Shown here piece by piece: positions 3,496-54,136 of a stretch of DNA of 64,000 nt. Each line of letters opens with the position of its first letter. Within the stretch, counting starts at the first letter, position 1. Both the position numbers and the translations under genes were made by a program. The stretch is from a virus (lineage: Duplodnaviria > Heunggongvirae > Uroviricota > Caudoviricetes). Where the stretch lies: IMG/VR virus record IMGVR_UViG_2778261505_000002; one strand, given 5' to 3'. The notes beneath the pieces are model-generated. The model worked only from the letters and a program-made list of their open reading frames with translations. It made no database searches and was not told where the DNA came from.

Positions 3496-3538
3496 CTAAT
3501 ACTAGAAAACAATTTGTTTAAAAAACAAAGGAAAGCAC

Positions 3539-4879: not shown

Positions 4880-4960
4880 AAAATAAGCGTGGAGAACACC
4901 TCCACGCTTGATTCATTGGTGAAACAACTTTTCTTTTGCCAAACCACAAAAGAAAAACAC

Positions 4961-26430: not shown

Positions 26431-26479
26431 CGTTATTATCACACACAAGAAAACAATTTGTTAAAAGGTTAAGTTAATT

Positions 26480-40733: not shown

Positions 40734-40805
40734 TTTGTAAGCCTTGTTTAAACACATAAGATAACAACTTGTTTAAACGCACCAAAAAAGAAAAAGGAAA
40801 AACAC

Positions 40806-48656: not shown

Positions 48657-48911
48657 ATGAACCACTTTAAGGAAACCAACATGTCATACCCGACTAATGT
48701 CGTTGCGCTCGTAGAGAGCGATTTTCTGGCCCAGGCTCGTGAAATGATGAAAGATCGTGAGCAGGCTTTCAACTTGTACGAATGGGCAATTAAGTGCTTG
48801 CATCTTGGCGAGCATCGCGAACTTGTTGAACAGCTTTTAGGTGAGTTGATCAATGAGGTGTTTGCCTTGAATGTTCAACTACATGGTAGAGAAAATAATC
48901 AATCACAATGA
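48657..48911 (+). CDS. Hypothetical protein
   Basis: 84-aa ORF; no recognisable motif. Confidence 0.4.
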   Translation: MNHFKETNMSYPTNVVALVESDFLAQAREMMKDREQAFNLYEWAIKCLHLGEHRELVEQLLGELINEVFALNVQLHGRENNQSQ

Positions 48912-49494
48912 TAGATAAGTACAAACTATTCATAAAGTGAATTGTAAGTGCTAAGATCTGATAGTTTCCAGTCGTAGACTGGAGACTCGACCTGATGGGT
49001 GGGGGTAAGCGTCACTGGCGTCAGGTTTAAAAAAAGCTCACTACCAGCGTAGAACTGGTGCCGTTTAGGTGTCGGGGAAGGGGGAACCAAAGTGAGCAGA
49101 GACAAGGGTCACTTTATGATTGTCGAGTCTGGGGTGTTTCGAGAGGTTGAATCCAGTACTCCCCTTCATAAAGTGTGGGAAGATCTCGGTTCTGGGGTGC
49201 TGTCATCCATAACTTCCCAAGTCTAAGCTGGCAGTAGACTTAGACCATAACTTTTCAGGTTATGAAACGACCAGGTTGGTGAGAGATTTTTATACTCACC
49301 TCCCTGGGAGAGTATTACCTGAAAAGACAACCTCTCACTTCGTTCGAGGTGAACTTCACTCACTTCGTTCGTTCAGTTCAGGTTTATAAAAACCTGTTCT
49401 GGGAAGTAATTTGTTTATTTTAATAATTATTAACACGCACGCGTGTGCGCACGCGCGAGGAAAAATCGGCGCGGCGCTTGATTCAGGAGTTTAT

Positions 49495-50085
49495 ATGACG
49501 ACGAAGACACCAGCCCGATCGCAAGCAAAAACTCGCAAAAAAGCCAAAAACAAAAATTCCCCCCGCACCAATCCCACAACGCCTGTCGTAGAGTTCAATC
49601 CCCAGCTTAAAACCGTGAAAATCTTTAGTGATGGCTCTTGCCTTAAAAATCCGGGTGGCCCGGGCGGTTACGGTATCGTTCTCCAGTATCGTGGTGAGGA
49701 ACGCGAGTTCTCAGATGGTTTTCATAGCACCACCAATAACCGCATGGAGATGATGGGGGCACTTATCGGGCTGGAGCGTTTGAAATATCCATGCAACGTT
49801 ATTTTGCACTCTGATAGCCAGTATCTGAAAAACGGCATGACACAGTGGATGAAATGGTGGAAACGCAATGGATGGATGACTTCTGACAAAAAACCAGTAA
49901 AGAATGTTGATCTGTGGAAGCGTCTGGATGAGGCCGCAAGTCGACATAATGTTCGCTGGAAGTGGGTTAAAGGTCACGCCGGGCATCGTGAAAATGAAAT
50001 ATGTGATCGACTCGCGAAGATCGCAGCTTTTTCAGCAGCAGATATGCCTCACAAGAAAGATATTGGTTTTGTTTATAATAAATAG
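49495..50085 (+). CDS. Ribonuclease HI with basic N-terminal extension
   Basis: Start at ATG 49495 after CAGGAG (track ORF begins 49411 inside a GC-rich palindromic tract); RNase H core IFSDGSC...[28 protein letters not shown]. Confidence 0.8.
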
Positions 50086-50522
50086 TAAGTAAGTGTTTAC
50101 CTATCATTTTAAATCATGTATCTTATCGGCGTCAGGATGACAATGTGTCGGTAAGACACAGTTCCAGGATGGAACGAGAAAGGCGGCTGGCAATCGCCAG
50201 CCGCAACTCTTTCTGACACTGGATGGAGTCCACATGGCACGTCAAACCTATTTCACTTCTGTAACTAAACGTCCTCGTTCTTTACGTCAAATTTTGGCCG
50301 AATTATTTAGCGGTCGGGTTATGTCACGCCTTGATGAACTAGAGACTACCGTTCGGTTGCTGAATGAACGTTTAGATAATCAAGCGTCAGTTGTTGCGAA
50401 CGTGGGGGCGATTGTTGCCTCTGGTTCTTCACGCGAAGCGAAAAATGCACGGCCTTTAGTGAAGGAGAAAAACAACAAGGACAGTTCGAATGGAAAATTT
50501 TCAAAGAAAGAGGCTGAAACCA

Positions 50523-50741
50523 ATGGCCTACGTTCTCATTATAGTTTCACTGGCGACGGTAGCCGTTCCAGCCGGTCAGAGCCTTTTGATGCCGGATTCA
50601 TCCATCACCACACCTTCGTCGACGACAATTACCACCACTCCAGTGGAGCGTCCTGTCACTCTGGATGGGATGGCGGTGGATGCGATACCTCAAGTTCATC
50701 CAGTTACTCAGGATCATGCTGTGACTAAGGCGGTTGTATGA
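50523..50741 (+). CDS. Small secreted/membrane protein with Thr/Pro-rich tail
   Basis: 72 aa from ATG 50523 after AGAGG; signal-like MAYVLIIVSLATVAVPA; overlaps alternative-frame ORF 50234..50728. Confidence 0.4.
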   Translation: MAYVLIIVSLATVAVPAGQSLLMPDSSITTPSSTTITTTPVERPVTLDGMAVDAIPQVHPVTQDHAVTKAVV

Positions 50742-50926
50742 ACTGGTTTTCAAATCACTTTGGAAAAATTTGGCTGGCAATTCTTGCCCTTATGGCCGCC
50801 GGTTGGGTATCGAACATTATAAAACTTGTTTGCTCTGGCGATCTCCAGTTTCAGGCTGGCATGACCTTGGCTCGTGTAGTTGGGATTTTTGTTTTTCCAG
50901 TTGGTTCGGTACTTGGTTATTTCTGA
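50738..50926 (+). CDS. Small membrane protein
   Basis: 62 aa; ATGA overlap with previous stop; two hydrophobic segments. Confidence 0.4.
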   Translation: MNWFSNHFGKIWLAILALMAAGWVSNIIKLVCSGDLQFQAGMTLARVVGIFVFPVGSVLGYF

Positions 50927-51019
50927 CGGCTGTTAGTGCATATGCATTGACCATCTCTGCGTAAGCTATTTATGTAATTAGAAAACAACTTGTTTTGACA
51001 AATAATAAAAGGAAAGCAC

Positions 51020-51445
51020 ATGTTAGGTTTCTTCAAAAAGAAAACTCGTAAAGCTGTTATCGAAGTCAAAAAAATGGAGAACCGTGATGCGGTTGAGGCC
51101 ACCGTGTGGGGCGCGTACATGATCTCCTATGCTGACGGCACATGTGACGCAAAAGAAATTGCCATTCTTGAGAAGACAATTGCAGCTCTGCCTGCGTTTT
51201 CTCCGTTTGCTGGTGAAATTGCCCAAATGAGCGCCAATATCCGTGCTCGTTACGAAGCGTCCCCTCGTTCTGCTAATGCACAGGCTATTCGTGAGCTGTC
51301 TGATATTGCGGGTACTCCAGAGGCGGTCGATGTTCTGTGTCTGTGCCTTGATATTGCCGATCAGGACGGCATTGGTGAACAAGAAGAGCAGGCACTGAAA
51401 AAGATCGCCCAGGCGCTTCAGTTGTCACTGGATGCTTATCTCTAA
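51020..51445 (+). CDS. TerB-like domain protein
   Basis: 141 aa; paired acidic helices (YADGTCDAKEIAILEK ... DIADQDGIGEQEEQALKKIAQAL) resembling the TerB fold. Confidence 0.5.
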   Translation: MLGFFKKKTRKAVIEVKKMENRDAVEATVWGAYMISYADGTCDAKEIAILEKTIAALPAFSPFAGEIAQMSANIRARYEASPRSANAQAIRELSDIAGTPEAVDVLCLCLDIADQDGIGEQEEQALKKIAQALQLSLDAYL

Positions 51446-51603
51446 TGCTTGAGAGATTCCGGCTTGTGATCGTCATTGCTCTTCTGGTGATGGCGGTGTT
51501 GGTGGATTTTACGGGAAAGATGATGTCTGTCATTTCTGATGGCGTCCTCATTGGTTTGGCGATCTACTTCGCTTATCCGTTAGTTCGTAAAGCAAAGTGT
51601 TAA
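51445..51603 (+). CDS. Small membrane protein (52 aa, not in ORF track)
   Basis: ATG overlaps TerB-like stop (TAATG); two hydrophobic helices; followed by strong terminator. Confidence 0.4.
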   Translation: MLERFRLVIVIALLVMAVLVDFTGKMMSVISDGVLIGLAIYFAYPLVRKAKC

Positions 51604-51604
51604 T

Positions 51605-51637
51605 GACAAGGGCCAAATGGCCCTTGTGTTTCGTTGA
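51605..51637 (+). terminator. Rho-independent terminator
   Basis: GACAAGGGCC-AAAT-GGCCCTTGTG followed by TTTCGTT. Confidence 0.7.
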
Positions 51638-51742
51638 CCGAAATAGAGAGTTTGCACCTTTACGTTTAGCTTGCTCCCCTTTTATGCCACATCACAATAA
51701 AGCCAATAAGAAAACAACTTGTTTAAGTATTAGGAAAAACAC

Positions 51743-52309
51743 ATGTGCAAGAAATGCAGAGCGATAGCTGATGAACAAAACGCCTTATTCGAAGAAATGG
51801 ATGCTAATGAACTGGTCAAAATGTTAGCCATTCTTCGAGGAATAGAAGACGTTTCCATATTTGAGAGACTGTTTACAATACTTAATTTTAATTCCACCTT
51901 TGAAGAGCCAACTCAGATTGTAGCTTTGGCACACCATTTCGGTGTTCATTACCTTGCTGAAAAAGAGAGAGCTGATAAGTTGCAAGCGACTTTGGATATG
52001 GTGAGCGAGACTCCAGGACCTCATGACGGTAACAAAAGTGAGACGATTATTGCCAGCAAAGATCGTGAAATTGCCGGGCTTAAATCCTCTCTAACGATGT
52101 TGATGTCTGCAATTAACCTTATGTCTTCTAAAGCAGGTTCTAAAATGCCATCACTAAACAGCGACGATCCGATGGCCGTTCGCCAGCTTTTAGGTGCAAT
52201 GGCCGACCAGCTCGACGACACAAAGAGTCGCCTTGAAGACATGATGCGGGAGCTCACGCATCGCCATGACTTGAATAAGCAGCCGCACAAAACGCAATAC
52301 GCACTCTAA
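51743..52309 (+). CDS. Hypothetical coiled-coil protein
   Basis: 188-aa ORF with GGAAAAACACATG start context. Confidence 0.5.
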   Translation: MCKKCRAIADEQNALFEEMDANELVKMLAILRGIEDVSIFERLFTILNFNSTFEEPTQIVALAHHFGVHYLAEKERADKLQATLDMVSETPGPHDGNKSETIIASKDREIAGLKSSLTMLMSAINLMSSKAGSKMPSLNSDDPMAVRQLLGAMADQLDDTKSRLEDMMRELTHRHDLNKQPHKTQYAL

Positions 52310-52348: not shown

Positions 52349-52450
52349 ACGCCTTAAATCTGCTGTAACGCCTATGAATGCAGCTTTTATGCCTTTTCAA
52401 GTTTGCGATAATTACACCAATCAGAAAACAAATTATTTAATGGTGTAATT

Positions 52451-54136
52451 ATGAATACAGCCCTTTCCATCATCGACGATGCCAGCTCAAACACGGCTAT
52501 CGACTATCGTCAGGAAATGAATGTCATCCACGAAATCGTGGCCGAGTGCGAGAAAGAGATCGCCTTCATGTATCAGGTTCACGACTTCGTTTATGGAGAC
52601 GAACGCCACAACATGATTAATCGCCTGCTGAGACTAAACCATCGACCAGATGAAGATCGCTCGCGTTTAAATCGAGGTTGGTTGGATAAAGTCGATCTGG
52701 AATGGGTGAAACAGAATATTTGGGCCGAGTACTGGAGGAAGGTCACGGACATGACTAACGTTTTGCTGATCATGCCAGCTTCCCGTCGAGATGAGTGGCG
52801 CGAGCAGTTTATAGAGGGCAAACAGGAAGTCATCAAAACTGACAGAACCGGCTACCAGATGAAGGTTAAAGAGTTCGTTGGTGTACCGGAGTTCAAAGCA
52901 GAAACGGTCATACCCACGATGCTTAATTTGCTGAATGACAGGCACAAATATCTCTCTGAGCGCGTGTATGGCTTGTTTAAGGCGCTGAGTCCTGCGCACA
53001 AGACAAATAAGACAAACGGTTTCAGCGAGCGTCTGATAATCGCTGACTGCATTTCTGATTTCTGGCGGGACAGCGTTAGCGTGAACTATCGCAAAGAGGA
53101 CTACATCGACGATCTGCGTGTCTTGCTTCATTTCTTCGCGCACAAAGAATTTATTACCATCAACCGCACTGCTGAGGTGCTATCAGCTGCGTATCGAGCA
53201 AACGACTGCCAGACCGGTGACTGGATGAACGTCGATGGAAATCTGATGCGCGTGAAGATGTTCAAGAACGGCAACGTTCACTTTGAAATACATCCTGACG
53301 TGGCCTGGAAGTTGAATGAGGTGCTGGCTTACAGTATGCCTGCTGCAATCCCCGCGCCATGCCGAACTGCGCCAAAAACACGGGCACCAAAGCAGTTCGG
53401 GTTAATCCAGAAGACGATCTCCGTGCCGGTTCGCACTGCGCTTCGTGACGGGCGATTGAGCAAAGACAAAGGCGTATGGTACTTCTCTGATTCAGCTCTC
53501 CAGAAGTCGCAGGTGGAAGAGCTTGAGCGCACACTGAGCTTCATTGGCGGCGTGCAGGAGAAAAAGCACTGGCAGTTCCCGTATGACATCGGCCATACGC
53601 TAAATACGATTGTGGCTACCGGTTTAATACCGGATACAAAATCACACCAGTTCTACCCTACCCCACGCTTGATTGCTGAGTACGTTGCCAGAGCCACTGA
53701 ATTGAAGCCTGGTGAGAAGCTGCTGGAGCCTCAAGCCGGACGTGGGGATCTTCTGGCCTATATTAACGCCGATCTGGAAGATGTTACCTGCATAGAAATC
53801 GCACCTCTCTTCGCTGATATCCTGCGTGGAAAAGGGTATACGAACACGATTTGCTGCGACTTCATAAAGTGGTCTGAGGACAACGCAGGTTATCAGTTCG
53901 ACAAAATCGTTATGAACCCGCCGTACTCGCTTGGTCGTCATAGAGAGCACACGCTGGCTGCGCTGGGGCATCTGAAAGTCGGCGGGCGTCTTGTAGCAGT
54001 ATTGCCGGGCACTGCGCCAATACTGGACTGGATGACGATGGATAATTACGTTTATGCCAGAGGGAAGTCGTTTACCAACGAGTTTGAAGACACAGGGATC
54101 ACAGTCAGCGTATACGTTTTCAAACGCGTTAAATGA
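52451..54136 (+). CDS. Putative N6-adenine DNA methyltransferase with large N-terminal domain of unknown function
   Basis: 561 aa; C-terminal ~180 aa carry FYPTPR, SAM-binding-like LEPQAGRGDLL and catalytic NPPYS (gamma-class order); N-terminal ~380 aa unassigned. Confidence 0.6.
   Translation: MNTALSIIDDASSNTAIDYRQEMNVIHEIVAECEKEIAFMYQVHDFVYGDERHNMINRLLRLNHRPDEDRSRLNRGWLDKVDLEWVKQNIWAEYWRKVTDMTNVLLIMPASRRDEWREQFIEGKQEVIKTDRTGYQMKVKEFVGVPEFKAETVIPTMLNLLNDRHKYLSERVYGLFKALSPAHKTNKTNGFSERLIIADCISDFWRDSVSVNYRKEDYIDDLRVLLHFFAHKEFITINRTAEVLSAAYRANDCQTGDWMNVDGNLMRVKMFKNGNVHFEIHPDVAWKLNEVLAYSMPAAIPAPCRTAPKTRAPKQFGLIQKTISVPVRTALRDGRLSKDKGVWYFSDSALQKSQVEELERTLSFIGGVQEKKHWQFPYDIGHTLNTIVATGLIPDTKSHQFYPTPRLIAEYVARATELKPGEKLLEPQAGRGDLLAYINADLEDVTCIEIAPLFADILRGKGYTNTICCDFIKWSEDNAGYQFDKIVMNPPYSLGRHREHTLAALGHLKVGGRLVAVLPGTAPILDWMTMDNYVYARGKSFTNEFEDTGITVSVYVFKRVK

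Follow-up and report, generated by a model that had tools for sequence, protein, structure and literature searches.

The locus considered here raises two questions: whether a pair of small adjacent genes in a 64,000-nt stretch of viral DNA (the window, meaning the whole stretch that was analysed) forms an unrecognised membrane-associated module, and what such a pair may do for the phage that carries it. A sequence-only reading had proposed that a TerB-like gene and a small membrane ORF, preceded by a palindrome and closed by a terminator, constitute a two-gene module of unknown function. The pair is indeed real and tightly linked, but it had already been recognised as tciA/tciB of phage P1 (PHROGs 632 and 1470), to which it is orthologous, and therefore it is not an unrecognised module. 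The locus is a P1-type tciA-tciB accessory cassette in an SSU5-like E. coli phage-plasmid. The names tciA and tciB were reportedly first given in phage P1, two decades ago, and a function was assigned to the P1 tci genes only 'by homology'. The pair is now known and annotated, including in hundreds of near-identical plasmids: plasmid records name the genes 'TerB family tellurite resistance protein' and 'DUF3927 family protein', and the record of phage Cyrano labels them 'P1 TciA-like' and 'P1 TciB-like'.

The region is 99.8% identical to deposited non-mobilizable E. coli plasmids of about 110 kb and 97-98.6% identical to the Escherichia phages Cyrano and CMS-2020a. Judged from these alignments, the window is an SSU5/pHCM2-type phage-plasmid, an assignment that is consistent with its neighbouring genes, since thymidylate synthase, DHFR, Dam methylase, RNase HI, ribonucleotide reductase and Pol III alpha fit such an element. 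ARAGORN reports four tRNA genes in the window, three of which are also found by Rfam. Between 50960 and 51640 the order on the plus strand is palindrome, AAGGAAAG, a 141-codon ORF, TAATG, a 52-codon ORF and a hairpin, and the features are the following:

50983..50995, no strand: perfect 13-nt palindrome AAACAACTTGTTT (extended consensus AGAAAACAAnTTGTTT), cassette-start/operator-like
51009..51016, plus strand: Shine-Dalgarno-like AAGGAAAG for tciA, a direct reading of the letters
51020..51445, plus strand: tciA, 141 aa, ATG start, TerB-family
51443..51447, plus strand: TAATG junction, in which the tciA TAA stop and the tciB ATG share 1 base, read from the letters
51445..51603, plus strand: tciB, 52 aa, DUF3927 protein, from Pfam and PHROG matches
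51606..51635, plus strand: terminator-like GC-rich hairpin (51606-51627) followed by GTTTCGTT, from folding and a consensus scan
51712..51724, no strand: next palindrome copy, the start of the following cassette, from the motif scan
51743..52309: 188-aa ORF of the following cassette

The product of tciA is a soluble TerB-fold protein, as judged from profile and model comparisons. The similarity that had been supposed for the 141-aa protein was confirmed, since TciA matched the Pfam TerB family PF05099 over residues 33-136 with 31.5 bits, above the gathering score of 24.4 (E 2.4e-7), and matched PHROG 632, 'tellurite resistance', from end to end (E 4.8e-63). A DjlA-type domain had also been suggested as a target for the profile search, and in the Pfam scan TciA matched PF05099 alone. 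Additionally, a profile built from the window protein and eight other divergent phage homologues aligned over its full length with the solved Klebsiella KP-TerB 2JXU (E 1.7e-14, residues 14-138 to 20-145). The window TciA shares 78.7% identity with phage P1 TciA over 141/141 residues. The AF2 model of TciA contains a confident six-helix domain spanning residues 22-132 (pLDDT 86) and an unstructured N-terminus, and its best Foldseek match was the small helical protein 2H5N (probability 1.0, TM 0.5-0.6). The first 21 residues are basic (net +5) and the core is acidic (net -10, pI 4.2), with a duplicated acidic motif in the form of two ADG-x5-E motifs. Across nine divergent phage TciA sequences, D39-G40-E46 and G117-E122 are invariant, as are D23, E66 and D95.

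Regarding the second gene, the small two-helix membrane ORF that had been pointed out at 51445..51603 is a real gene and not a chance ORF, since its 52-aa product matched both Pfam DUF3927 PF13064 (46.6 bits against a threshold of 25, E 3.4e-12, residues 4-50) and PHROG 1470 'TciB-like' (E 1.4e-21, residues 1-51). The ORF had been called unlisted, which is partly right, as the form that PGAP often calls in plasmid records starts at ATG 51490 and has only 37 aa, but a DUF3927 gene is annotated in public records. The longer start at ATG 51445 is favoured over the 37-aa form because the Pfam and PHROG family alignments cover it. The window TciB shares 39% identity with phage P1 TciB (E 1e-10), and a profile search of a 1.84-billion-protein library recovered only 165 DUF3927 clusters, nearly all of 45-65 aa. 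Its hydropathy profile contains two hydrophobic stretches, and both ends are basic (+1 and +3), for which the predicted topology is a membrane hairpin of two helices with N-in/C-in orientation; the tciB product is thus predicted to be a DUF3927 two-helix inner-membrane peptide. The conserved columns are D21-F22, S28, D32-G33 and P45, with D21 and D32 adjacent to the short predicted external loop.

The overlap of the tciA stop with the tciB start, which the sequence-only reading had described, is a general property of the pair. In fact, stop and start overlapped by 1-8 nt in 92 of 95 distinct tciA-tciB pairs, with three junction types, in the forms TAATG/TGATG or GTGA/ATGA, and the genes of the other three pairs were 0-3 nt apart. 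Given this conserved overlap, tciA and tciB are arranged for coupled translation. The start context that had been noticed upstream of tciA is also present, with the GG-AAA of the ribosome-binding site kept across aligned relatives. The closing hairpin was likewise borne out: ACAAGGGCC-AAAT-GGCCCTTGT begins 3 nt past the tciB stop, folds into a 9-bp stem, 6 of whose pairs are GC, around a 4-nt loop (free energy -21.6 kcal/mol; z -5.4 relative to shuffled sequences), and was marked as terminator-like by the consensus scan. Its tail GTTTCGTT is an imperfect T-tract with 5 T in 8, and Klebsiella relatives carry a hairpin with compensatory changes at the equivalent position. A tciC gene was not found after tciB; the sole ORF there (51597..51767) crosses the hairpin and the next palindrome and, from its position and appearance, looks non-coding.

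The upstream palindrome had been taken as the unit's own. It does lie upstream, with its centre 30 nt from the tciA ATG, and its core is invariant in the Klebsiella and Cyrano relatives while the flanks have diverged, but it is not private to the pair. The palindrome pattern has 13 matches in the 64,000-nt window against 1.1 expected by chance, and AGAAAACAAnTTGTTT occurs in 9 copies, all of them on the plus strand and each centred 18-41 nt ahead of a start codon; further copies after tciAB lie at 51712 and 52426. The palindrome is therefore a plasmid-wide cassette-start element. DNA similarity with Klebsiella plasmids begins at 50981 and ends at about 51758, its limits coinciding with two successive motifs, and in Salmonella Typhi pHCM2 the slot keeps the motif, but its cargo is a Rha-family regulator gene instead of tciAB. 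Given the pHCM2 swap and the motif-to-motif similarity, the region is a string of exchangeable motif-cargo-hairpin cassettes, of which tciAB is one cargo. In its GC content the cassette does not stand out as foreign. The sigma-70 scan near tciA returned one weak candidate, TAGAAA-16-AATAAT, and transcription beginning where it predicts would truncate the ribosome-binding site. The palindrome was also considered as a promoter recognised by a phage single-subunit RNA polymerase, and this was rejected, as an RNA polymerase was not among the ten large ORFs scanned; those with Pfam matches were replication, nucleotide-metabolism, partition or CobT/AAA-type proteins.

The association of the two genes was then followed across phages and prophages. 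Starting from the TciA alignment, the partner was directly adjacent in 80/80 loci on viral contigs and, from a narrower TciA alignment searched against one genome per species, in 19 of 21 loci, one of the two exceptions being a 700-bp contig. The P1 TciB seed gave adjacency in 64/64 loci on viral contigs, and the most distant DUF3927 relatives in the 1.84-billion-protein library all sat directly after a TerB gene (6/6), as did three more relatives in chromosomal prophages, one of them a 48-aa remnant. Among the hand-picked annotated phage records, 9/10 loci carried the partner; the ten comprise two loci nearly identical to the window and eight divergent phages, and the seven partner-carrying members of the latter are P1, P7, D6, a lambdoid phage, an N4-like Salmonella phage, an Erwinia jumbo phage and a Pseudomonas Nickievirus. 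The tciA-tciB pairing is near-obligate. Neither of the outcomes that had been named as contrary to the sequence-only reading, namely a 141-aa protein devoid of TerB-family similarity or a small ORF that is not conserved in homologues, was encountered, because in practically all the homologues examined TerB has the small ORF beside it.

Two real exceptions were found. A Vibrio N4-like phage carries TerB without DUF3927 and has a phage-encoded TerC/Alx just upstream, and in a Pseudomonas juntendi prophage an unrelated 67-aa transmembrane ORF overlaps the terB stop. Even where DUF3927 is missing, these gene neighbourhoods point to a recurring theme of a phage TerB accompanied by a membrane partner. 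Candidate 'Rosetta-stone' proteins, in which TerB would be fused with DUF3927 or another domain (P0113, P0257, P0301, P0313 and P0326), were discarded as frameshifted or chimeric calls from single contigs; AF2 applied to the frameshift-fusion protein P0113 modelled the TciB part with low confidence (pLDDT 54-73) and yielded no interface that could be used.

Concerning the second question, it is possible, on a tentative reading of the combined evidence, that TciB tethers TciA to the inner membrane and that the two form a minimal guard of the Ter type, directed at competing phages and at pore-forming colicins. The membrane part of this proposal draws on the hydrophobic helices and basic ends of TciB, on the charges of TciA, on the membrane partners in the two exceptions and on the reported association of TerB with the membrane and with TerC. 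According to the proposal, TciB would be made in step with TciA through termination-reinitiation and would insert with both ends in the cytoplasm, where it could recruit TciA's acidic TerB domain to the inner face of the membrane or hold it there, the basic N-terminal segment of TciA possibly aiding this membrane holding. The TciA-TciB complex would then correspond, in minimal form, to the membrane complex that TerB and TerC make in ter operons, and tellurite resistance would not be expected from the pair alone. In the most speculative steps, the complex might act mainly in lytic growth or induction, when it might survey the infected cell's inner membrane or make it more stable towards outside insults such as pore-forming colicins and the DNA injected by competing phages; these insults correspond to 'PacB' and 'Phi', phenotypes that have historically been linked to ter genes. 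A role in competition has also been proposed for phage-borne Ter genes by Iyer et al. (2021). More doubtful is the wider proposition that a phage-specific clade of TerB proteins could have DUF3927 as its dedicated membrane partner, the two making up the smallest self-contained 'Ter' module, which temperate and virulent phages of many unrelated families may use during infection as a guard that either excludes competing phages and pore-forming colicins or prevents premature lysis triggered by depolarisation.

The acidic character of TciA leads to another explanation, in which TciA would bind a divalent cation through its ADG-x5-E motifs and, together with TciB, modulate the cation fluxes of the host's TerC-family (Alx-type) proteins or others, so that the supply or toxicity of Mn, Zn or Ca would be adjusted while the phage replicates, and which we regard as unlikely. 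It draws on the invariant acidic residues of the nine TciA sequences and the core pI given above, on the invariant D21 and D32 of TciB beside the short external loop, and on the Vibrio phage, where the same TerB type is paired with TerC/Alx. Moreover, TerC proteins have been tied to Mn and Zn handling (PMC12096827, PMC12054061), and a TerC-TerB complex has been reported (PMC11003894). However, metal binding by TerB is a prediction, no transporter-like gene was found near the cassette in the window, and, unless several copies assemble, a hairpin of 52 aa would make a small transporter.

The guard proposal, and specifically its lytic-growth component, can be examined through the genomic settings of the pair, which occurs in temperate and in virulent families, the virulent ones being N4-like, jumbo Erwinia and Pseudomonas phages. 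In P1, P7 and D6 it lies among tRNA genes upstream of ban and, in P1, on the same strand as Pban, which is repressed by C1, and downstream of it; lambdoid prophages of Klebsiella and E. coli carry it between the antiterminator Q and the holin genes, and in a Serratia prophage it is near a cI-type repressor. A role in the lytic cycle is supported by its presence in virulent phages, by the Q-holin position and by the P1 location downstream of Pban. The lambdoid position could also suggest control of lysis timing, with TciB as a holin/antiholin-like two-helix peptide and TciA as its cytoplasmic regulator, and class II holins do have the same N-in/C-in two-helix layout as that predicted for TciB, whose C-terminus is charged. 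Such a function is nevertheless improbable, as the lambdoid prophages have their own holins immediately downstream, the pair is not beside lysis genes in the window, P1, N4-like or jumbo phages, and the P1 genes tciA, tciB and tciC were non-essential in a genome-wide CRISPRi analysis, in which their knock-down caused no plating defect (PMC10695390).

The same distribution speaks for a lytic-growth role and against a resistance gene that would purely benefit the lysogen, because of the genomic settings and of the virulent phages. A lysogenic-conversion gene, by which the pair would give the carrier cell resistance to tellurite or oxidative stress, is the role implied by the family names used in annotations. 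Ter clusters do improve survival under tellurite and oxidative stress (PMC11003894), and the authors of a study on D6-like prophages, who considered tciA and tciB to be morons in need of tests, suggested a host-fitness role for them (PMC6799933). On the other hand, in one reconstitution of a ter operon TerC and TerD were the minimal resistance genes, TerB was neither necessary nor sufficient, and combinations lacking terC conferred no or only weak tellurite resistance (PMC8779313). Since terB was dispensable in that reconstitution, 'tellurite resistance' should be understood as the name of a family rather than as its function. No terC, terD, terZ, terA or terE is annotated in the roughly 17 kb (8-kb flanks) around the cassette in a 99.8%-identical plasmid, and the Pfam scan of the ORFs around the cassette gave no ter-type neighbours. 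Additionally, strictly virulent phages, in which no lysogen is formed, commonly carry the pair. Resistance conferred on a lysogen is thus very unlikely to be its purpose.

A further line of evidence concerns how the two proteins have evolved relative to each other. Between P1 and P7, TciA shares 31% identity and TciB 83%, and between the window and the lambdoid prophages TciA shares about 86% and TciB 31-42%. The tciA/tciB junction is thus a recombination point, and this decoupling argues against a tightly co-evolved TciA-TciB interface; judged from the alignments, any contact between the two proteins must rest on a few invariant TciB positions, namely D21, F22, S28, D32, G33 and P45. Mix-and-match alleles are also unlike cognate toxin-antitoxin pairs, which bears on the notion that TciB is a small membrane toxin and TciA its antidote, the pair acting in addiction or abortive infection to stabilise the plasmid prophage or to kill infected cells. 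A small hydrophobic peptide with a co-translated soluble partner on a low-copy plasmid prophage would fit that notion, but the pair is also present in virulent phages, neither TciA nor TciB matched any PADLOC defence model, including those of Bunzi and Shango, at E <= 0.1, and in a survey of P1-like elements the tci operon was highly variable and had been lost in about half of subgroup 1 without apparent cost (PMC9603915). A toxin-antidote function is accordingly extremely unlikely. A comparison with NCBIfam likewise gave no match to a defence system.

Some of these observations also weigh on the preferred reading, that of a membrane-anchored guard, which is weakened because the P1 tciABC genes are non-essential, because the PADLOC search gave no match and because identity is decoupled between TciA and TciB. 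It is weakened further by the origin of 'Phi' and 'PacB', both of which were described for whole ter operons, with TerC, TerD and others, and by the reconstitution in which tellurite resistance neither needed TerB nor followed from it alone (PMC8779313).

As a feature of the genome, the cassette is ordinary. What the present analysis adds to the known pair is its near-obligate pairing across phage families, the conserved overlap, the mosaic junction and the SSU5-type cassette architecture. TerB domains are met repeatedly, in DjlA, in anti-phage systems and in operons for tellurite resistance, and this two-gene cassette represents a minimal TerB unit; almost always paired, coupled and found in very different phages, it is simple to test genetically. 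If DUF3927 were in fact the dedicated partner, the cassette would offer a tractable entry to TerB-domain biochemistry, including that of Bunzi and Shango. Moreover, the palindrome that bounds the cassettes may help in reading the regulatory grammar of SSU5-like phage-plasmids, which are clinically relevant carriers of resistance genes.

Among known systems, the closest relatives are tciA-tciB(-tciC) of phage P1, terB/upf69.4 of P7 and orf8/orf7 of D6. In P1, tciA (70233..70658) and tciB (70658..70822) share the same 1-base overlap, at 70658, and are followed by a 35-codon tciC. The P1 and window TciA proteins are equal in length, 141 aa, and both TciB proteins belong to DUF3927/PHROG 1470. In contrast to P1, the hairpin in the window comes straight after tciB, tciC being apparently confined to P1- and P7-type loci. 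Furthermore, the window cassette is not beside tRNA genes or ban and has its own SSU5-type palindromic element, whereas the P1 operon is associated with the C1-controlled Pban.

The TerB of terZABCDE(F) operons (KP-TerB, 2JXU) belongs to the same Pfam family as TciA, and both have an all-helical domain and are basic at the N-terminus and acidic in the C-terminal part. The ter-operon protein has been reported to be membrane-associated and a partner of the multi-pass TerC (PMC11003894, PMC8779313, bioRxiv 10.1101/2022.05.11.491447), whereas the window TciA adjoins a 52-aa DUF3927 hairpin; in addition, the context of the former is chromosomal or IncHI2, and that of the latter is a phage. The anti-phage systems Bunzi and Shango contain a TerB domain, as TciA does, and Millman et al. 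suggested that this domain surveys the membrane against phages (bioRxiv 10.1101/2022.05.11.491447). However, the window pair matched neither of their PADLOC models, the genes annotated in the roughly 17 kb around it form no such system and, unlike Bunzi and Shango, the cassette is borne by phages themselves. In DjlA, a transmembrane helix next to the TerB-like domain keeps that domain on the cytoplasmic side of the inner membrane (bioRxiv 10.1101/2024.08.29.610257), a layout that the proposed TciA-TciB complex would copy in two polypeptides, with the J-domain lacking and the membrane segment made as a separate protein. Finally, Iyer et al. (2021) described stand-alone TerB genes in Erwinia jumbo phages and suggested for them a role in competition with superinfecting phages (PMC7824862).

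The position held by the tciAB cassette, formed by tciA (TerB-family protein) and tciB (DUF3927 membrane peptide), is occupied by another gene in a related element. In the S. Typhi element pHCM2, the tciA–tciB slot (51020-51603 in the window) is filled by a gene coding for a Rha-family transcriptional regulator (L191 2238-3080), which is preceded by the same palindrome and bordered by the same genes that flank tciAB here. The palindrome, AGAAAACAAnTTGTTT, occurs in nine copies in the window, all of them on the + strand and each followed by a start codon 18-41 nt downstream:

577-589, 3507-3519 and 4922-4934, +, palindrome copies 1-3
14037-14049, 26451-26463 and 40762-40774, +, palindrome copies 4-6
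50983-50995, 51712-51724 and 52426-52438, +, palindrome copies 7-9

Upstream of these copies, a common stretch (aTTAAACAcAt) is found with loose conservation, and the ribosome-site context aGGAAA..CAC-ATG accompanies most copies, not all. The repeat probably serves the phage-plasmid as an operator or a promoter element.

The region between rnhA (RNase HI) and tciA, together with the gene lying further downstream of tciAB, comprises the following features:

50183-50204, between rnhA and the 164-aa ORF, GC-rich hairpin with a perfect 9-bp stem, GCGGCTGGC-AATC-GCCAGCCGC
50234-50728, +, conserved 164-aa ORF (PHROG 10411), C-terminus rich in Ser/His/Asp
50738-50926, +, conserved 62-aa membrane ORF (PHROG 6006)
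52451-54136, +, 561-aa protein, N-terminal DUF4942 domain and C-terminal N6-adenine methyltransferase-like half

The hairpin scored as terminator-like on both strands. Since pHCM2 retains the 164-aa and 62-aa ORFs while being devoid of tciAB, neither of them is part of the tciAB module. Upstream of rnhA, the approximately 580 bp at 48911-49495 presented no convincing ORF and no Rfam match; a GC-rich palindrome lies within them at 49440-49457, and several inverted repeats of short length are also present. The 561-aa protein matched the PADLOC 'mad2' model (E 1e-15) as well as type II methyltransferase models, and probably acts as an orphan methylase in anti-restriction.

A membrane partner is still present for both TerB homologues found without DUF3927:

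L111 3441-3644, Pseudomonas juntendi prophage, 67-aa transmembrane ORF, different from DUF3927, overlapping the TerB-gene stop
L010 375-1394, Vibrio N4-like phage, TerC/Alx protein encoded upstream of the TerB homologue

In other phages, tciAB often has phage tRNA genes for Asn, Thr, Met/Ile or Arg as neighbours (L003, L004, L006, L007, L008 and L009, and 35 of 96 distinct tciAB loci); the tRNA cluster of the window (10447-10997; Asn, Tyr, Thr, Ser) is located 40 kb from the cassette.

Between P1 (L003) and P7 (L008), TciB shares 83% identity and TciA only 31%, the reverse of the pattern observed between the window and the lambdoid prophages (L046-L090), in which TciA is more alike than TciB. 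These opposite identities mark a mosaic junction and imply recombination at the tciB start or just inside it. Additionally, phage Cyrano carries two further genes downstream of the 188-aa ORF (51743..52309), the next cassette after tciAB. The tciAB region behaves as a cassette-exchange site and, as depicted in a published figure on pSLy3-type phage-plasmids (PMC9600943), the resistance-gene insertion locus of these elements adjoins DUF3927 and TerB genes.
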